Virus record (IMG/VR): IMGVR_UViG_3300045922_000503
Coordinates: 1 to 64,000 of that record
Source: a virus
Direction: 5' to 3' (one strand)
DNA length: 64,000 bases
Of the stretch, positions 27 through 58,600 are shown in pieces (positions within the stretch are counted from its first letter, which is position 1; each line of letters begins with the position of its first letter). The position numbers and the translations under genes are program-made. The notes beneath the pieces were generated by a model. The model was not told the origin of the DNA and searched no databases. It worked only from the letters and a program-made list of their open reading frames with translations.

Positions 27-201
27 GTTGCGTTCCCGGTGGGGCAAAGCCGGGTCCTCATTCGTTTTCTGCCCCTCGACTGCGAACCATTCGCAGTCGT
101 ATTCCATAACTATTATGGGCACTTACGGCCCTATTTTAGTGGCGGAAGGCTAAGACCACCCGAAGGTGTAGCCCCCTCCCCTTTGCCAGAGGGGAGGGGG
201 A
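6..201 (-). repeat. Copy 1 of a duplicated structured intergenic/5' leader element
   Basis: Near-identical to 483-639; copy 1 has an extra ~40-bp segment containing a promoter-motif variant. Confidence 0.9.
111..120 (-). promoter_or_regulatory. Promoter-motif variant GCCCATAATA
   Basis: 2 mismatches to GGCCATAACA; followed by hairpin GACTGCGA-ATGGT-TCGCAGTC. Confidence 0.55.
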
Positions 202-203
202 GT

Positions 204-500
204 TCAGGCCCTGGCGGCCGCCTCGGCCGCCAGGGCGGAGGCTCGGGCGGTGGAGGCCCAGGCCTCCACCTGGGCGGCGGAGGACGCGGCGGCCTGGGCC
301 TCCGCCTCCCGGGCGTGCGCCCGGGTGGCCCGGGCGGCGGCCTGGGCGCACCAGGCGGCCCATCGGGCCCTATCCCGGGCGGAGGAGGCCGTCCGGGCAT
401 GGGCCGCCGCCGCCCGGGCGGCGGAGGCCACCGACCGGACGGCGGCGGCCGCCTCCCGGGGGGCGGAGGAGAAGGAGGTGGAGTTGTTGTTGTTAGTCAT
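204..500 (-). CDS. Small Ala/Arg-rich helical hypothetical protein (98 aa, MTNNNNST...)
   Basis: In-frame ATG at 500 within ORF 204..800, immediately downstream of the conserved leader. Confidence 0.6.
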   Translation of the reverse strand: MTNNNNSTSFSSAPREAAAAVRSVASAARAAAAHARTASSARDRARWAAWCAQAAARATRAHAREAEAQAAASSAAQVEAWASTARASALAAEAAARA

Positions 501-639
501 GTTACGTTCCCGGTGGGGCAAAGCCGGGTCCTCATTCGTTGTCTGCCCCTCGACTGCGAATGGTTCGCAGTCATATCTTGTAGCTAAGACCGCCCGAAGG
601 CGTAGCCTCCCTCCCCTTCGCCAGAGGGGGAGGGAGGGA
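483..639 (-). repeat. Copy 2 of the duplicated structured leader element
   Basis: Direct repeat of 6-201 with compensatory stem changes. Confidence 0.9.
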
Positions 640-648
640 CCCCCAAGG

Positions 649-1191
649 TCACCCTTCACACACCTGTCTCCAGGTGGATGTGAAGGTCCCCCCCATGACC
701 TTGGGGTCATACACCAGTGCGTTCGCGCACCAGAAGGTGCGCGACGCATTGGTGTCCTCAGGAGCCAGGTGGGGGTCCCACGGCTCCTGAGGGGACACAC
801 CGCCGCAGAAGGCGGTGACCAGGACGTACCGTCCTGGGATCACCTGCCCGCTGCGGCGGTCGCTGGCGGCGAATGCAATCACCGCCAGCAGGGACGATTC
901 GGGGCCCTCCGCCCCGACCGCAACCCGGGAAGCCCGGGCGCGAGCGGTGCGGAGGGCAAACGTGGTGGGCTCGTCCCAGCCCACCACGTCAGTCGCGACA
1001 AGGCCGCTCCGGCCAATGACGCGACCGAAGTCGACGTCAGTGACCATGAACGACCCGTCGCCGGGCAGGAGGAGGCGTTGCATCGCCTCCTCAATCACCT
1101 TGCCCACCTCAGGGTGGGCGATCAAGTGGTCTTTTGTTTTCGGGGGGACCACCATCACCCCGCCGCACCCTGTGCGGTAAAGATCTTGCAT
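649..1191 (-). CDS. Hypothetical protein (180 aa)
   Basis: GGAGG RBS before ATG 1191 (MQDLYR...); globular-looking sequence. Confidence 0.7.
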   Translation of the reverse strand: MQDLYRTGCGGVMVVPPKTKDHLIAHPEVGKVIEEAMQRLLLPGDGSFMVTDVDFGRVIGRSGLVATDVVGWDEPTTFALRTARARASRVAVGAEGPESSLLAVIAFAASDRRSGQVIPGRYVLVTAFCGGVSPQEPWDPHLAPEDTNASRTFWCANALVYDPKVMGGTFTSTWRQVCEG

Positions 1192-1227
1192 TTGCCCTCC
1201 GTGGGCTTTTGCGACCCCATTGTCGCA

Positions 1228-1617
1228 GTACACGCACTGGGAATCGAACCCAGTCACAGCCGCCAAGGCGTGTAGTTGTCGAGTGCGTACATGATTTGAG
1301 CACGCTTTACCTCTTGCAGCAGGGGCTCGACACCTCCCGTAGAGCTGCAAGGGTTTGCCCTATTGCCGGGCCGGGTTCTCCTTTACCCCTCATGGCGGCA
1401 CGCGGCCACGTCTGGGTGTTGACGCGCCGATCCACGATGGAGATGGGGGGTACACTTCGCGTGCACCGAGCGCTTGTAGCCGCAGGGTCCTCGCTACAAG
1501 CCGAGGCCGGTGTTCAGGGTGTCCGGTCACCCGGGTCATCGAAGATGCGCATGGCGTCTCTTCTCCTCCCTCTGTGTACCTCTTTAGAGGCTCTGGGCTT
1601 GGGACCAGTGCGTGTGC
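1228..1617 (-). ncRNA. Candidate ~390-nt structured ncRNA with tRNA-like 3' end
   Basis: Downstream of motif at 1673-1682; 5' ACACGCACTGG pairs with 3' CCAGTGCGTGT; T-arm CTGGG-TTCGATT-CCCAG near the 3' end; several internal hairpins; no long minus-strand ORF with a convincing start. Confidence 0.5.
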
Positions 1618-1672
1618 TGACCGTCAGCAACGCAGCCACATTGAGGAGCGAGCAGATCAAGGACCTCGCAAG

Positions 1673-1682
1673 TGTTATGGCC
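1673..1682 (-). promoter_or_regulatory. GGCCATAACA putative phage early promoter
   Basis: Exact motif, just after the VWA gene stop. Confidence 0.75.
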
Positions 1683-1684
1683 AC

Positions 1685-3079
1685 TCACGTGCGGGCCTTG
1701 CCCCTGAACTGCTCGAACATCACGCCCCCTGTACCGGCCGCCAGCTTGGCCAGCTCCGGGTTCTTGGACTCCATCGCAAATCCGTGAACCCGGGTACCGG
1801 GGATGTCTGAGGGCTTGACGCCCTTGGCGGAGTTGTCGTCGTCGGTCAGGACGACGACTTCGGGGCGGTAGAGCATGGCCCCGCTGGCGACCTGCTCTTC
1901 TATGAACTTATGGGCAAACTTCACCGCCCCGGCGATGTCAGTACCGCCGCCACTGAAGCTGCCCTTGGTGAAGTCCCGAATGAGGGCGTGCGCCTCCTCG
2001 GGCGTGCTGGCGACGCGGACCCTCGACGAGGACGCGTCAAACACGCTGAGGTAGACCACAGCGTCCCCACTCAGGACCGCCTTCAGCCGGTTCATCACGA
2101 CACCTGTTGCCAGCAGGTGTCGTGATCCAAACATTGACCCGGACCCGTCCAGGGCGATGTAGATCGCCTGCCGGCGCTCTACACGCGTGACGCGCTCCCG
2201 TACCGGCAGCTGACCTGACACCGCCTGGTACAGGAAATAACCCGGGTTCTGCTGACGGGCCGCCCATGCTGTCGCCGGGACCTTTTGCAGTTCGTGCAGC
2301 CCCTTGATCGGGCGCTGACGAACCTCCGACCCCTCTGGGTCGGCCTCCACCTTCCGCTGCCTGCGCACTTGCAGCCTGGTGAAGCGGTCCAGGGTGCGGC
2401 TGACCTCTAGGATCAACCTGGCACCCTCTGGGTCGGCCATCTCCTGCGCGATCTGGGCCTCTTTGAGGTCCGGGTTGTTTTGGTTGGCCGCCCCCGTGGC
2501 CTTTTCCAACATCTCCCGTTCCTCTTCGGTCATGGACTCCACAATGTCCATGACCTCATTGATGTCGGAAGCCGGGTCCGCGGCCTCCGACGAGAAGATG
2601 GGGAGCGGCTGGCCCTCGCCGCTCCCCGAGCCCCCCTTCATCTTGGACAGCATGGCCAGAATGGCCACTGCCTTCTGAAGGGGGGTCGAGCCAGGAGCGG
2701 AGTCGTAGTTGAGCGAGTCAACAAACTCCGTCACCCGGCGGTTGTAGTTTTCCACCGCCATCAGGTGGGCCTTGATGGCGGTGGAATACACTGAGGTTAC
2801 CCCGCCCGACCCCCCGGGGAAGGCTCCCGCGACTGACCGCGGGATCTCCCACCGCGAAGCTGCGGGGTCCAGCTTCGCCTCCACCTCTTCGCGCAGATCG
2901 GCGCGATAGGCGGAGAGGGGGACGGTTTGGCCGCCGGCGGCCATCCGGGCTAGGTCCGTGACTAGGTCACGGCTGTAGCCCTTTAGGCCGACGGCGGCGG
3001 CCGCCTCTTTCATCTCCTCGACCGTGGGGTCGAGGAAGTCCAGAGGCGCTTTAGTCCGCCTTGACATGCTGTCCTCCAT
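1685..3079 (-). CDS. VWA (von Willebrand A) domain protein, ViaA/CoxE-like partner of a MoxR ATPase
   Basis: MIDAS DGSGS (IYIALDGSGSM), GGGTDI, VVLTDD; adjacent to AAA+ ATPase. Confidence 0.85.
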   Translation of the reverse strand: MEDSMSRRTKAPLDFLDPTVEEMKEAAAAVGLKGYSRDLVTDLARMAAGGQTVPLSAYRADLREEVEAKLDPAASRWEIPRSVAGAFPGGSGGVTSVYSTAIKAHLMAVENYNRRVTEFVDSLNYDSAPGSTPLQKAVAILAMLSKMKGGSGSGEGQPLPIFSSEAADPASDINEVMDIVESMTEEEREMLEKATGAANQNNPDLKEAQIAQEMADPEGARLILEVSRTLDRFTRLQVRRQRKVEADPEGSEVRQRPIKGLHELQKVPATAWAARQQNPGYFLYQAVSGQLPVRERVTRVERRQAIYIALDGSGSMFGSRHLLATGVVMNRLKAVLSGDAVVYLSVFDASSSRVRVASTPEEAHALIRDFTKGSFSGGGTDIAGAVKFAHKFIEEQVASGAMLYRPEVVVLTDDDNSAKGVKPSDIPGTRVHGFAMESKNPELAKLAAGTGGVMFEQFRGKART

Positions 3080-3151
3080 GGTGACAGCTCTCCCGGGAAC
3101 AGCCGGGCCTGTGCGCCTCTTGGGGGGCGCTGCCCCGTCTCGCGATCAGAA

Positions 3152-4276
3152 TCAGATCTTTGTTTCGCTGATCGCGAGCTCCTGCAGGCGAACCGCCTGC
3201 TTCTGTGCTTCCGCCCGGGCGGCGCCCACCCGGGCCTTCAGGTCGTCTGGAAGCGACTTGAAAGTCGCTTCCGTTGCCTGAATGAGCCGCTTGGAAGCCT
3301 GTAGAAGCTTGATTGGAGACCCAGAGTTCTGGGCCTCCTTGCCGGCGGCCAGGAGGCCGTTCACCTCCTGGATCCACCGGGACACTACGCCCTCCGCAGC
3401 GGCCCGCTCCGCGGCGGCGGCGATTTCTTCTTCCACCCCGGCAGCCAGGCTGCCGAGGCCGTCCACGAATCGGAGGGCCAGGAGGTCCTCCTTCCGGGGG
3501 GAGCCATGGCCGTTCATCGCCGCCTGGGCGCGGACCACCCCGGCGGCGTGGACCGCTGTTCGGGGCGACACAGGCCGTCCCCCCTCAGCCCCCGCCTTCG
3601 CGAGTAGCTGGGCGAGGACGGGGGTCATGTCCCCGATCTTTGCCCCGGGGACTGCCTCCAGGAGGCGGAGGTAGTCCCCGGCTTCATACTTCTCCCACTC
3701 CACGCGAAGCTGGAGCGGGAACCTCTCAATCAGGGCATGGGCTGCGGGGCCCATGTCGCTGATATCTTCCGGGTCTTTGTTGGTCAGCCCGACGACGACC
3801 CGGGTCTTCATCGGGAACCGCTGCGCGCCCTTCCGCAGCTCCTTCGCGGTGAGGGTGTCCTTCAGGGCGAGAAGGACACTCGTGGGAGCGTCGAACAGCT
3901 CCTCAAACACCGCCCACTCGGCGTTGAGGAAGGACCTCTCCGGGTGGTACCGAAGTACCTTCTCCGTCTCCAGGGCAGTAAAGTCCAGACCGCCCCAGAG
4001 CGTGGCCTCGTCCATGCCCTCTCCGAAGGATTGGACGAATACGTCTGCTGAGGCGGCGGCCACCCGCCCCAGCCCCACGCTGGTCATCTCGCTCTTGCCG
4101 TGGCCAGCGGGGCCCCACAGCAAGAGGTTCTTCCCGCTGGCGATGGCCAGCGCCAACGCCGACGCGAATGCGTCGGCATAGACGAAACCGGCCGCCTCAA
4201 GGGCGGCCAGGATCGTCTGCCTAAGGTTGGCAGAGGAAGAAGAAGAAGAAGAAGAAGCAGAGATGCGCGCGTTCAT
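3152..4276 (-). CDS. MoxR/RavA-like AAA+ ATPase
   Basis: Walker A GPAGHGKS, Walker B-like AVFEE, LTN sensor, ALIERF Arg finger. Confidence 0.85.
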   Translation of the reverse strand: MNARISASSSSSSSSANLRQTILAALEAAGFVYADAFASALALAIASGKNLLLWGPAGHGKSEMTSVGLGRVAAASADVFVQSFGEGMDEATLWGGLDFTALETEKVLRYHPERSFLNAEWAVFEELFDAPTSVLLALKDTLTAKELRKGAQRFPMKTRVVVGLTNKDPEDISDMGPAAHALIERFPLQLRVEWEKYEAGDYLRLLEAVPGAKIGDMTPVLAQLLAKAGAEGGRPVSPRTAVHAAGVVRAQAAMNGHGSPRKEDLLALRFVDGLGSLAAGVEEEIAAAAERAAAEGVVSRWIQEVNGLLAAGKEAQNSGSPIKLLQASKRLIQATEATFKSLPDDLKARVGAARAEAQKQAVRLQELAISETKI

Positions 4277-53980: not shown

Positions 53981-55675
53981 GTGAGAACCAGAATCAGAGT
54001 GGCTAAGATCCTAGACGTCGACCCGGCGAAGTTCACCGCTACGATTCAGTACTTGGGCTCCGAGGGTGTGGTGGGAGATGTCCCCATCAGTTCCCCCTTC
54101 CTCGACATCGAGGGAGGGGCGCACAGCGGGGGGATGCCGAGGGCTGGATCCTTCTACTTGGTCGTGTTTCCGGAGAACGCTTCTCAGCCGGTGGTGTGGG
54201 GAGGATACCCGCTCCCCACCCCCGATGTCGGGCAGGCAGAGGGGATGGAAGACCGCGAAAGCGCCGCAGGCCCCCGAGACGACTTCTCCAGCTCCAGGGC
54301 TTTCATGGCTCCAGGGGACCAAGGCCTGTTCGGGTATGATGGAGCCAAGGTGGCACTCAGGTCTTCTGGCGTGCTAGAGCTATTCATGGATGAGATGTGC
54401 TGGACCCGGTACTTCATGGACCAGCACGCCATCCGGAGCATGGCCCGAGCGGTGATGCACTCCGGATGGTGGGGAGCTGTCGAGGGCTTCGTCCTCGACG
54501 ACAACCTGGCGGAAGACGCAGAAGGGGCGCCCACGGGGGCGAGAGTCATCATCAAGAACAGGACTCAGGGCGCAGCGCACGTTCTCATGGAGGCAGGGTC
54601 CATCCCGGACGAGGCTGGCGTGCAGCTCGCTGGCGTACCCGTACAGGATCAGGGGACTCTGTCCGAGGTTTGCATGCGTCTTCTGGTGTACGACCAGGAG
54701 ACCGCTGACGCCTACCATGACATGGGGCAGTTCCCGCCGGCTGAGCAGGCTCGGGTCATGATCAAGGTCGACCAGGAGGGCAACTCCCAGGTGCGCCTCA
54801 TGGGCATGCTTGACCTCATGGTGAAGAGGCTCCTGCTCTCTGTAGAGGAACGCGTCGTGGCTGAAGTGCACGGGGCCACGCAGATGATTCTCAACGGGTT
54901 GGACATTGAGTCATCCGCGGATGCCCGTGTCGTTTCCGACACCGGCATCCTTCTCAAGAGCCGGGGGGACGTCCGCATCAGGGCGAGGCGCTTCATCGTC
55001 GAGGCGCTCAACGACATCATCGCAACAGAGGGTGCCTGGGGCGTGGACGCCGGGGGAGCAGTGAGCATCGCCGGCGCCAGCGGGCTCAACCTGCGCTCGG
55101 GCCGGGATCTGACGGTCACTGCAGCAGGAGACCGTGCGGACTCCACGGCAGGGCGCCTCGATGTGCTGGTGTCAGGCCAGGGGCCGCCGTCGTGGAAGAC
55201 TACAGACACCCCTACGCACAGGACTAGGCTCAGAGAGGGCAAGATGGTGCTGGAGACTCACAAGGGCTCCGTGGAAATGAAGCTCAACCCCTCCGGGTCT
55301 CCGGCCGCGCCGCCCCTATCCGCCATCCGCATCGTCGGGGATCCGACCCAGCCACACCTGTTAGGGCGTGTTGAGGTCTTGGCCGGCATCCTGGGCACGG
55401 GGCTCGTCGCAGATGTCTCCGGCCTCGTCAGCGTCGGCAACGTTGCCGGAGGCGTACTCATTGACCCTACAGGTCGGGTGCAGCTGGGACTCAGACAAGG
55501 CGTGGTGGGGAACGTCGTGACCAGCACCAGCCATCTGGACTACATGACTGGGCTTCCGCTGAGAGGTGCCCCCGAGGTCGTAGTGGTCAGTGCTCTTCCG
55601 GGCATCCCTGCACCCGGCGTCCCGGTAGTCCCGCCGCTCCCCTTCATCCCTACTCCTGACCTGATCGGCGCATGA
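53981..55675 (+). CDS. Probable baseplate central spike (gp5/VgrG-like OB fold plus beta-helix)
   Basis: N-terminal RVAKILDVD...GGMPRAGSFYLVVF resembles a gp5 OB fold; C-half of short beta-strand repeats; Pro-rich tip. Confidence 0.55.
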   Translation: MRTRIRVAKILDVDPAKFTATIQYLGSEGVVGDVPISSPFLDIEGGAHSGGMPRAGSFYLVVFPENASQPVVWGGYPLPTPDVGQAEGMEDRESAAGPRDDFSSSRAFMAPGDQGLFGYDGAKVALRSSGVLELFMDEMCWTRYFMDQHAIRSMARAVMHSGWWGAVEGFVLDDNLAEDAEGAPTGARVIIKNRTQGAAHVLMEAGSIPDEAGVQLAGVPVQDQGTLSEVCMRLLVYDQETADAYHDMGQFPPAEQARVMIKVDQEGNSQVRLMGMLDLMVKRLLLSVEERVVAEVHGATQMILNGLDIESSADARVVSDTGILLKSRGDVRIRARRFIVEALNDIIATEGAWGVDAGGAVSIAGASGLNLRSGRDLTVTAAGDRADSTAGRLDVLVSGQGPPSWKTTDTPTHRTRLREGKMVLETHKGSVEMKLNPSGSPAAPPLSAIRIVGDPTQPHLLGRVEVLAGILGTGLVADVSGLVSVGNVAGGVLIDPTGRVQLGLRQGVVGNVVTSTSHLDYMTGLPLRGAPEVVVVSALPGIPAPGVPVVPPLPFIPTPDLIGA

Positions 55676-58600
55676 CAGCACCACTTCGATGGGATCAGGC
55701 CGGCGGTGACATCGGCAACCCAGCTGCCCTGCGGGCCGTCATCGGCGGCCTGCAACAGGCGAGGGACGCGCTTGAAGCGTCCCGCATCCCTGCTCAGATT
55801 GTCGCCACGCTGGCAGAGGTGCAGTACTGGCTCGACCTTGCCATGACGCTGGCCTCGGGGCAGCGGGTCATAGGCATTGCACTGGGTCAGATCCTGATCG
55901 ACCTCGTTCGGCCCTACCTCAGCGACGGTGCGTACATCCTGGCTCACACCAATGTCGCGGATGTCATTCAGCAGCGGGGACTCAGGACTCTGTTGCAGCA
56001 CGGGCAGGATCCCTTTGCAACCGCAGGGGACCCGCCGCCCTACGCAGGCGATGTGTTCACAGACCCGCAGTCCCGCCTTCTTGCTGGCGTGCGTGGCAGT
56101 TTCTCCTTCGCTCGACAGGTGCGTCGCGTCTCATCTCCCTTGGCACGCAACCCTGTTGTCCAGGAGATCCTGACCACCCTAGCCGGAGAGCCACAGCAGA
56201 ACTTTGACACCTGGCTGCAGGACTTTCTGAACGCGTTCTACGACGAAGCTGACCCCCTGCGCCCGGTGCTGTACGAGAGCACTGGTCCTCTGACTCCCGG
56301 GCAGAGATTCGAGGTTGGTCCCCCGGAGTTCGGCGGGTATATCTTCACCGTGGAGACAACGGACCCTACTGTGCTGTTTCGCACACTCGGGCAACTGAGG
56401 GACTTGTTCCGGACGAGCTCCCCGTCTTTTGTCAACCCGATCTCCATCATTCCGCTGGGGGAGGACGAGGAGTACGACTGGAGGCGGGACCTTGCGAACT
56501 TCGCCATGTTCAGAGGGCCAGCAAGAGAGCGAATCCGCATGGTGAGCTCCACGCCGGACTTCCAGCGCCTCTCCACCGCCGACCTGATGCCGCTGGTCGA
56601 CAGATTCGCCAACCTGCTCAACATCGCGGCTGGATTCGTCGGACCTCCGCTGCTGGTCAACGTCAACCTCGACTCCATCATCCAGAGTCTGACAGAAACG
56701 TACCTGCGCATCCTTCGTATGCTCGACCTGATCATCAGCACCCTGACGCAGCTTCAAATGCTGCTGTCTGTGCCAGGGGTCAGCATGCTTCGGATCCCGC
56801 TCTCCCGCGCCAGCCTCGACAACTTCGTCGCCGACATCTACCGAGCGTCAAGCACCAGAGACGATCTAGTCCGAGTCGAGGCAACTCCTCCGCTGTTCCG
56901 TGAAGGGGCCGTAGACGACCCTACCGTTGAGAACCCTACCGAGTTGGCAATCGCCGGTATGCCAGTCGCGTTCGCCAACAGGGCTGTCGACAACTTCCGT
57001 CGCACCTGGGCCCGAGGGACGCTCATCCGGGACCGCCGTGTAGAGCAGGTCCACGGGTCCTATGTGGGCCGGGGCACCATCATGCGACGAAGCGAGGCCC
57101 AACGCATTGCAGCTGCCGTGCCCGAGTTTCGGTTCGGGCCCGTCCACAACCTGCTCGTGGGGGGTTTGGGAGTCTTCTACCAGCGAGGCCCCCTGTCTCA
57201 GTTCCTTGACGGCCTCTTCAACAGAAGCCGGCGCGGGGGAGGTACGGAAGAGGACCCAGCTTCACCTGAAGACATTGTCGACGAGCTTCGGCAAGTGCAG
57301 TCCGCGCTGTCCTCCGCAGTCACTGCTTCTATCCCCCGGCTTAGCGCGGCCCCGACAGCTCCTGCAGGGTCGCGGGCCAGCGTGGCGGCAGCGCGGGGGC
57401 CTGGCAGGGATTCCTTCAGGCTCGATGACCAAGAGACAGACAGGTTCTCCGACTCGGGCCGCGCCGCCGGCGCGGAGGACGGAGCGGCAGCAGCACAGTT
57501 ATCCTCCCCTTTGGGGGTGGTGTCGAGGCCTGCCGTAGACACGGCAGTCTCGGGGGCAGGCACTGGCTTCAGGCGTTGGGGAGCTGTGGCGGTAGACGCT
57601 GCCTCAGGGGCAGACCCCGGCACAGACGCCAACGTGGTCGTTGCGGGGTCTTGGCGACGAGTCGGCAGGATGCTGCCTGAGCGCCCAGATCTTGAGGTTC
57701 CGGCTGTCACTGGAGACGGCCCCCCTCTCGGGGCTCCGGGAGGACCCGACGACGTTCCTGCGTCGGGGCGGGTCGCGTCGCGCCTGTGGAAACACAGCGC
57801 TGTCTCTCAGGTCATCAGCGTGACCGGGGCCAGCTTGGACGGCCCGGTGCTGACCTGCCCTGGGTTTGGCCCTGCGTTCAGTATGCCGGACAACCCTGGC
57901 GCGGGGGATTACCTTTTGGCGGTAGATCTGCGGCTTCGTATTGAGGCGACAGCGGAAGAAGTCCGCGTCCGTACGTCGTTGGTCAAGGTGCTTGGCGCCG
58001 ATCGGTACCTGCTGTCCCACTGCCCGCCCTCTCCCCCTCTCGCCACGCTGCTCGGGATCACAGTCGTCGAGCGGGCCGACAACTTCCACCCCGCAGACGA
58101 GTACCTGGAGGTCGACGCAAGCGGTATGTCTCCAGACGACGTGCTGGCGGTCTCCGCGTGCGGCCGAAAGGTTCCTCGACCTGGCTTTGCCACCGCCGCT
58201 GCCGCAGAAGATGATCGAATCGGCGTGCTCTCCGCTTCCATCATCGTGGGGACGTACGTCGCCGCAACTTCTCCGGCACTTCCTTCTTCAATGACAGGCC
58301 CCTTGGGAGTGCTGGCAGGGCCAGTGAACTCCCCCACGCAGTCTCTGTCGACATCTTGGGCGACGGGGTCCAAGGTCCGAAGCTGGTCACCAGACGGAGA
58401 GCCATCCCCCAGCACAGACCGGCGCATCGCTGCCTCGCAGACGCCTATCACGCAGTGGCGGTTCTCTGGAAACTGGGCAAGCGCCATGGCAGTGCTTCCC
58501 CTGGCGGGAGGAGTGGTCCTTGGAGCTGGATCTCCCGCCGTGAACGCGCTGGTCTATGCCCCCTCGAACCCGGCCACTGGCAACCTCTCCACGCTCGGGG

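Follow-up and report, generated by a model that had tools for sequence, protein, structure and literature searches.

The stretch of DNA analyzed here (the window) consists of the first 64 kb (64,000 nucleotides) of IMG/VR virus record IMGVR_UViG_3300045922_000503, which is 99,249 bases long, has a GC content of ~62% and was assigned a completeness of 55% by CheckV. Near the start of the window, on the minus strand, a 493-nt interval (positions 1192 to 1684) separates a gene encoding a VWA-domain protein from a downstream gene encoding a protein of 180 amino acids, and this interval contains, in the direction of transcription, a promoter-like motif, a type-P1 twister ribozyme, a 12-codon open reading frame (ORF), a structured spacer and a minihelix resembling the top half of a tRNA. 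Codon periodicity was absent from approximately position 1200 to 1650, while both flanking genes showed strong periodicity of GC content at the third codon position (GC3); none of the ORFs within the interval, on either strand, matched a Pfam or PHROG family, and no intrinsic terminator was found in it. Taken together, these three observations identify the 493 nt of the interval as a non-coding part of the transcribed strand and, since both family matches and codon periodicity were absent, we ruled out a hidden gene or pseudogene. With the exception of the promoter-like motif, no paralogous copies of the interval were found in the genome. We consider it somewhat probable that the interval acts as the long non-coding leader of a phage transcription unit, equipped with two RNA-processing devices.

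The first of these candidate devices, the twister ribozyme (positions 1647 to 1564, minus strand), starts 27 nt after the promoter-like motif. In a permissive Rfam scan, it matched the type-P1 twister family (RF03160; clan CL00120) with a score of 37.1 bits and an E value of 2.6e-6 when only the region was searched, or 1.8e-4 for the whole window; this was the sole Rfam match in the 64 kb, and no other ribozymes or known RNAs were found in the record. The architecture is complete: P1 (UCCU/AGGA), P2 (UGUG/CACA), the GC junction and a C-AA cleavage step are accompanied by P3 (UGCGU/ACGCA, extended by GCUGA-CGG-UCAGC), P4 (CUGG-UCCCAAGC-CCAG) and P5 (CCUC-UAAA-GAGG), the latter followed by UA and then by GAGGG. 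In the cmscan alignment, P1, P2 and P4 are free of mismatches and appear in the consensus order, and they also hold as enforced pairs in folding. All of the conserved twister nucleotides are present (the AA after the cut, the GC junction, L4 GGUCCCAAGCCC, the A before P2' and GAGGG) and permit the formation of pseudoknots T1 and T2. The base at position -1 is a C instead of a U, as is also the case in the phage twisters designated L018, L026 and L029, and, as in other type-P1 twisters, cleavage is predicted to take place at an N-A step, here between C1643 and A1642. P3 and P5 are known optional twister stems, P5 having a reported frequency of ~1% among annotated twisters (PMC6154101), and the P3-plus-P5 layout seen here is shared with phage twisters L023, L029 and L051.

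Counting against this assignment, the score of 37.1 bits is well short of the Rfam gathering threshold of 67.2, which is why a standard Rfam scan of the locus comes back blank. The low score can be ascribed to the long P3 and to the P5 insert. From 52 viral loci fetched for having a twister core, six with P3 and/or P5 inserts were run through cmscan, and these six phage twisters, all with the full core, scored 36 to 52 bits against RF03160, none of them reaching 67.2. Since six comparable phage twisters also remained below the cutoff, the threshold seems to under-call twisters of this build, and we accepted the locus as a twister; by the same token, ribozymes of this kind are likely to be under-annotated in phages. 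We are thus highly confident that the locus contains a genuine type-P1 twister ribozyme, the self-cleavage activity of which is predicted from its sequence and structure. The first-pass annotation of this locus, which was made from the sequence alone and proposed an undescribed tRNA-mimicking non-coding RNA (ncRNA), overlooked the ribozyme, meaning that the best-defined part of the supposedly undescribed RNA belongs to a known class. A check of tRNA and tmRNA (transfer-messenger RNA) likeness with Infernal/Rfam and ARAGORN, as that annotation had suggested, yielded neither a tRNA nor a tmRNA, the twister being what Rfam returned instead.

The phage context of the ribozyme is not exceptional, as bacterial self-cleaving ribozymes are commonly found in such a context (PMC6765202). 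All of the scored phage type-P1 twisters in which the conserved core is complete (L004, L023, L029, L040 and L051) reached only 36 to 52 bits against RF03160. One of these, in a 185-kb record (L004:1222-1396; IMGVR_UViG_3300029305_001878), is a 41.6-bit twister that ends 5 nt before a tRNA in a co-oriented tRNA array, and another phage twister (L031) lies 249 nt before a tRNA-Arg. A 77-kb phage contig (L005:6251-6786) carries a Twister-P5 match (37.3 bits) and a type III hammerhead ribozyme (42.5 bits) on the same strand, ~400 nt apart, and L023 contains two identical twisters separated by 1.1 kb.

At the opposite end of the interval, a 46-nt minihelix (positions 1274 to 1229, minus strand) terminates 38 nt upstream of the following start codon. 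It is composed of UACACGC (1274 to 1268), a 13-nt connector, the T-arm CUGGG-UUCGAUU-CCCAG and, on the 3' side, (U)GCGUGUA; in DNA letters, the T-arm consists of CTGGG (1253 to 1249), TTCGATT (1248 to 1242) and CCCAG (1241 to 1237) and is followed by TGCGTGT (1236 to 1230) and A1229. The element thus combines a canonical T-arm, with a 5-bp stem and a 7-nt UUCRANY loop, with an acceptor-like stem of 6 to 7 bp stacked on it, and, when positions 1274 to 1229 were folded alone, the local minimum free energy (MFE) structure was a 7-bp stem (UACACGC/GCGUGUA) stacked on a 6-bp T-arm. The 7-nt acceptor-like strand and the discriminator-like A1229 that had been noticed behind the T-arm are indeed present, as is the reported lack of an encoded CCA. 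On both strands of the 99-kb record, the hairpin at 1253 to 1237 was the only T-arm-like hairpin. By our own calculation, which uses a loose definition of such hairpins, ~0.5 would be expected genome-wide and, consequently, ~0.001 in this intergenic region; the hairpin also fits the strict GGTTCGATTCC loop-stem consensus exactly, for which far fewer chance occurrences are expected than under the loose definition. In the 700 nt that follow each of 53 other phage twisters, T-arm-like hairpins were encountered only inside real tRNAs.

Minihelices made up of an acceptor stem and a T-arm are a type of RNase P substrate, and mascRNA provides an example of a tRNA-like element at the 3' end of MALAT1. 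In plant mitochondria, so-called t-elements at mRNA ends have been read as RNase P/Z signals (PMC1920247). By analogy with such elements, the minihelix is probably a tRNA-like RNase P/Z processing signal, which is the one of the readings offered in the first-pass annotation that we adopted. Two nucleotides after A1229, a further hairpin can be read from the sequence (GCGAC-AAUGGG-GUCGC; positions 1211 to 1226, minus strand). It is not a terminator; on an mRNA cut after A1229, it would be 5' terminal, where it might play a protective role.

The leader opens with the motif GGCCATAAC (positions 1682 to 1674, minus strand), located just past the stop codon of the VWA gene (1687 to 1685). There are 12 copies of this motif in the 99-kb record (0.8 expected), found in intergenic regions, nearly always ahead of genes, at 25 to 100 nt before start codons. 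Copies of GGCCATAAC(A) are located at window positions 1682, 4377, 6106, 8690, 8724, 13535, 18319, 19510, 28322 and 53691 and at record positions 66543/66546; they include one palindromic divergent pair, and many copies are followed by a hairpin. In the leader, such a hairpin (GCGAG-12 nt-CTCGC; positions 1648 to 1669, minus strand, read from the sequence) occupies the space between motif and twister. From this distribution, we infer a promoter function: the motif resembles a private promoter and is perhaps a candidate for recognition by an RNA polymerase of the phage itself.

Downstream of the ribozyme, the twister 3' end, GAGGGAGGAG, doubles as the Shine-Dalgarno sequence (GGAGGAG) of the 12-codon ORF MRIFDDPGDRTP (positions 1552 to 1514, minus strand), which starts with ATG. 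This ORF showed neither a protein family match nor codon periodicity. Several other phage twisters are also followed by an ATG within about 5 to 12 nt. The ORF gives way to a structured non-coding spacer (positions 1275 to 1513, minus strand) with long hairpins that include perfect stems of 9 and 8 bp. No Rfam match at an E value of ≤10 was found for the spacer, nor does it have a paralogue in the genome. The 289 nt following the twister (1275 to 1563) fold with a z score of -3.24; the z scores of 36 control segments averaged -0.44, with a standard deviation of 1.14, and one of the 36 was as low. In these respects, the first-pass annotation is supported: the stretch is non-coding, starts after a promoter-like motif that recurs in the record and has a fold of greater stability than expected. 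All of the features that it listed are also located where it had placed them, namely, both complementary arms of 11 nt, the T-arm, the long hairpins GCTTGTAGC/GCTACAAGC and CTTGCAGC/GCTGCAAG and, preceded by GGAGGAG, the 12-codon ORF.

The 11-nt arms, ACACGCACTGG (1615 to 1605) and CCAGTGCGTGT (1240 to 1230), are perfectly complementary on the minus strand. Projected onto the elements described above, the 5' arm (ACACGCACUGG; 1605 to 1615, minus strand) is made up of the 3' strand of twister P3 and the 5' strand of P4, and the 3' arm (CCAGUGCGUGU; 1230 to 1240, minus strand) of the 3' strands of the T-stem and the acceptor-like stem. According to the MFE structure and our reading of the sequence, a second block, AGCCCAG (1593 to 1599, minus strand; twister L4 and P4 3' strand), can pair with CUGGGUU (1253 to 1247), so that the twister core (1615 to 1593) and the minihelix (1253 to 1230) are complementary over 11 plus 7 bp. 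This complementarity of its P3/P4 strand to a downstream tRNA-like element is one of the features that set the twister apart from known type-P1 twisters. Since both the 11-bp helix and the T-arm require CCAG (1240 to 1237), the two are mutually exclusive. The first-pass annotation had combined them in a closing stem; while the complementarity stands, the full 11 bp cannot coexist with the T-arm, for which the local partner UACACGC suffices.

How much weight this complementarity deserves depends on the comparison made. Perfect inverted repeats of at least 11 bp were found in 5% of the 493-nt segments of the window and in 2.9% of shuffled sequences, and, taken alone, the repeat is therefore borderline. 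Among 37 distinct phage twisters, the longest downstream complement to the twister P3/P4 strand was 11 nt here and ≤8 nt in all 36 others, with the caveat that the repeat was already known when this query was selected. Moreover, the GG..CC stems of twister and T-arm hairpins are imposed by their own families, giving partial complementarity for free. We consider it doubtful that the pairing between twister and minihelix is functional; the closing stem may represent either chance or refolding after cleavage. As the competing strand is made ~375 nt after a fast-cleaving ribozyme, a postcleavage role would be more plausible than control of cleavage.

The course of events that we favor, with moderate confidence, combines twister self-cleavage at the head of the leader with RNase P/Z-type processing at the minihelix at its tail. 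Transcription would start at, or read through, GGCCATAAC (1682 to 1674), after which the twister would fold while being transcribed and cut itself between C1643 and A1642. This cut would free a downstream RNA with a 5' hydroxyl from the promoter-proximal leader or from read-through RNA of the VWA operon. The freed RNA would carry the 12-codon ORF and then ~240 nt of very stable hairpins, and, by analogy with tRNA-like elements elsewhere, RNase P and/or RNase Z of the host would most likely be recruited by the minihelix (1274 to 1229). These enzymes would set the leader free as an RNA of ~370 to 410 nt, leaving a downstream mRNA with its 5' end immediately in front of the protective hairpin. 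The closing stem could form only with both local folds, twister and minihelix, open.

Besides the subthreshold score of the ribozyme, several observations weigh against this scenario. In the thermodynamic fold of the longer RNA, the T-arm has a pairing probability of 18%, and the local stem can form only if its seventh pair is a C-U mismatch or the register is shifted by one base, and it needs the 13-nt connector as well. For positions 1650 to 1225, the MFE structure is the one with the long-range duplex (-182.8 kcal/mol), compared with -178.2 kcal/mol for twister plus T-arm and -175.5 kcal/mol for the fold of the first-pass annotation (7-bp acceptor-like stem plus T-arm); since twister pseudoknots are absent from all three energies, we regard these states as effectively equal in energy. 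None of the public runs listed for the stretch that contained the locus was an RNA run, and the scenario does not account for the purpose of a 490-nt leader. Finally, the homolog search proposed in the first-pass annotation came up empty: neither blastn and tblastn searches against phages nor protein-anchored scans of viral and metagenome contigs nor a protein search revealed a syntenic relative, the material covered being IMG/VR, JGI metagenomes, GenBank phages, 5.8 billion proteins and the source runs. The protein search returned only 50%-identical VWA homologues, and no diverged strain over positions 1000 to 1800 was present among the source run contigs compared at 80% likeness. With no relative of either the phage or its RNA among this material, minihelix and spacer do not have the support of conservation or covariation.

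The first-pass annotation had envisaged a discrete RNA of ~387 nt (A1615 to A1229) with tmRNA-like architecture, in which ACACGCA/UGCGUGU would form a 7-bp acceptor-like stem on the T-arm, RNase P/Z would make the ends and the product would mimic tRNA or serve as a decoy. It is true that the 3' strand of the T-stem runs straight into a 7-nt strand complementary to 1615 to 1609, followed by an unpaired A, and that a structure combining the 7-bp stem and the T-arm with the P4 and P5 hairpins of the twister lies only 7 kcal/mol above the MFE. Also, by our own calculation, a perfect 11-mer complement within 400 nt of a preset T-arm flank would be expected only ~1e-4 to 2e-4 times; over all position pairs, however, an 11-bp repeat occurs in 3 to 5% of segments, and the same 3' strand has a local partner in UACACGC. 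More importantly, the proposed 5' acceptor strand proved to be the 3' strand of P3 and the 5' strand of P4, integral to a complete twister that would fold first, and the acceptor stem would break P3. With no tRNA or tmRNA detected by ARAGORN or Rfam (E value of ≤10) and no G3-U70 pair, CCA or Ala-Ala tag, we consider this model very unlikely. In another alternative, the twister alone would be functional. The T-arm hairpin would be a relic, either of a decayed phage tRNA gene or of the 3' end of a host tRNA retained as an attachment site, or a product of chance, and the complementarity would be coincidental. The occurrence of phage twisters in tRNA arrays (L004 and L031) makes a decayed neighboring tRNA plausible, the T-arm is weakly populated in full-length folds, 0.5 loosely defined T-arm hairpins are expected per 99 kb (both strands), and a repeat of 11 bp occurs at the segment frequency just given. 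Then again, the hairpin matches the strict GGTTCGATTCC consensus, with a closing stem of 6 to 7 bp stacked on it, and occupies the transcribed strand of the one extended non-coding region; neither family of integrases was found in the 99 kb, and the 21-mer comprising T-arm and acceptor strand was found in none of 185,579 species genomes. On these grounds, we think it unlikely that the twister is the only functional element.

Two further readings assign a function to the complementarity itself. The minihelix strand (1253 to 1230) might act as an "anti-twister" in a conformational switch, its pairing with the ribozyme excluding both the active twister and the tRNA-like fold and thereby coupling or regulating cleavage, RNase P/Z processing and downstream translation; a local look-alike, ACACGCCUUGG (1273 to 1263), which is identical to the twister strand at 9 of 11 positions, would compete for the same partner. 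Such a switch would fit the near equivalence of the two partners of the 3' strand and the energy difference of no more than about 5 kcal/mol between the two states, as well as the fact that only 1 of 37 phage twisters has a complement of >8 nt to its P3/P4 strand, to which the second block adds another 7 bp. However, with cleavage rates of up to about 1,000 per minute reported for twisters (PMC6154101), cleavage would already be over by the time that the competitor, ~375 nt further downstream, is transcribed. Furthermore, the complementarity stems in part from the family-imposed GG..CC stems, the statistic was chosen post hoc, and neither a ligand-binding element nor a relative in which the pairing is kept was found, leaving the switch decidedly improbable in our view. 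Alternatively, twister and minihelix might constitute one device for producing a stable structured phage RNA of ~400 nt, the 5'-hydroxyl end of which would be generated by the ribozyme and the 3' end by tRNA enzymes of the host; the spent twister core would then refold onto the minihelix strand (11 plus 7 bp) to give a closed, nuclease-resistant molecule. We attach an equally low probability to this idea, which, if true, would provide a natural self-processing ncRNA cassette that reuses the catalytic core of a ribozyme as half of its closing helix.

Several known RNAs were considered as identities for the locus or as points of comparison. For tmRNA (RF00023), ARAGORN reported no genes in the window or the whole record, and no tmRNA family matched at an E value of ≤10. 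While the locus shares with tmRNA its size range, the pairing of ends beside a T-arm and the presence of an internal short ORF, this ORF begins at an ATG behind a Shine-Dalgarno sequence instead of a resume codon, and the 5' strand belongs to a ribozyme. The tRNA-Ala-like hallmarks of tmRNA that the first-pass annotation had already reported as absent are indeed lacking on reading the sequence: the third pair is A-U rather than G3-U70, the 3' tail is ACUG, without CCA, and the ORF ends in ..RTP. A tRNA cloverleaf was rejected because ARAGORN found none at default settings and only a mismatched "Leu with intron" at a threshold of 70%, and RF00005 did not match at an E value of ≤10. As for a phage attachment site (attP) or host tRNA relic, neither PF00589 nor PF00239 was detected in the 99 kb, which, for a record that is 55% complete and a host that is unidentified, is not an absolute exclusion; the 21-mer was also absent from viral contigs, and a looser pattern gave 10 matches, of which 2 fell within unrelated tRNAs that resembled the locus in the pattern only.

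Closest to the favored reading of the minihelix are the plant mitochondrial t-elements, which likewise have an acceptor-like stem on a canonical T-arm, lack D and anticodon arms and mark an mRNA boundary just upstream of a gene (PMC1920247); the putative element described here differs in its phage context, its 13-nt connector and its imperfect seventh pair. HDV (hepatitis delta virus)-like theta ribozymes, which adjoin real phage tRNAs (PMC10879173), offer another example from phages of a small self-cleaving ribozyme that is linked to tRNA-type RNA and presumably serves to form RNA ends, but they belong to a different ribozyme class, and the twister reported here lies ~330 nt upstream of the tRNA-like minihelix. 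The Y RNA YrlA of bacteria and phages, which goes together with Ro/Rsr, is also structured, has paired ends as well as a tRNA-like module and lies beside a VWA-domain gene. In YrlA, however, the tRNA-like module is internal, and the neighbor at our locus is NorD/CoxE-like rather than TROVE/Ro. A Y RNA acting with Ro was rejected on the basis that no TROVE domain (PF05731) was detected in the record, that the VWA neighbor folds as VWA/NorD and that no Y RNA family in Rfam matched.

The novelty of the locus lies in the combination of its parts and in the complementarity between twister and minihelix, not in the parts themselves. The natural roles of bacterial and phage twisters are still largely unknown (PMC6765202), and the value of this locus is that it places a twister at a defined position: the ribozyme follows a private promoter-like motif of the phage at a distance of 27 nt and heads a long structured leader that also carries a tRNA-like element. 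The predictions are mappable: a 5' hydroxyl at A1642 and cuts at 1274/1273 and 1229/1228. If functional, the complementarity would link self-cleavage in a new way to the refolding of RNA or to its processing by tRNA enzymes; if due to chance, it would leave a further phage twister with a possible tRNA-like punctuation mark next to it, a finding of modest interest.

Public runs containing the stretch were metagenomes from hot springs and microbial mats (two DNA runs, apparently one data set and probably the source of the record). In a Logan contig of 83,445 bases from the source sample, window positions 600 to 3200 correspond to positions 55214 to 57814, so the contig extends at least 54.6 kb past the window start. 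The phage is therefore large, with a genome of at least 154 kb, and the locus belongs to a hot-spring giant phage. No RtcB, CCA-adding enzyme or Rnl-type ligase was found in the 99 kb of the record, which is a weak exclusion given its completeness of 55%. Upstream of the leader, the VWA gene (positions 1685 to 3079, minus strand; Pfam VWA_2) encodes a NorD/CoxE-like protein, the AlphaFold model of which (predicted local distance difference test score of 86) matched only VWA/NorD-type partners of MoxR ATPases. A MoxR ATPase gene is indeed found upstream of it (3152 to 4276, minus strand), the VWA protein being the NorD/CoxE-like partner of this ATPase, and a gene for a Mg-chelatase-like ATPase is located upstream of the VWA gene as well. 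Homologues of the MoxR-VWA pair (1685 to 4276) with ~50% identity, none of which were in IMG/VR, derived mostly, where labeled, from metagenome-assembled genomes of Patescibacteria, an odd distribution for a high-GC hot-spring phage.

Downstream of the leader, the 180-amino-acid protein is encoded at positions 649 to 1191 (minus strand), starting from an ATG at 1191 behind GGAGGG, with GC3 periodicity in its frame from approximately position 1200 downwards. It belongs to phrog_23674, a family without an assigned function (E value of 1.3e-12), and a tblastn search against phages revealed distant homologues in GAP32-type giant phages. Further along, window positions 200 to 450 have a GC content of ~90% at all codon positions, with overlapping ORFs on both strands (204 to 800 on the minus strand and 250 to 1275 on the plus strand).

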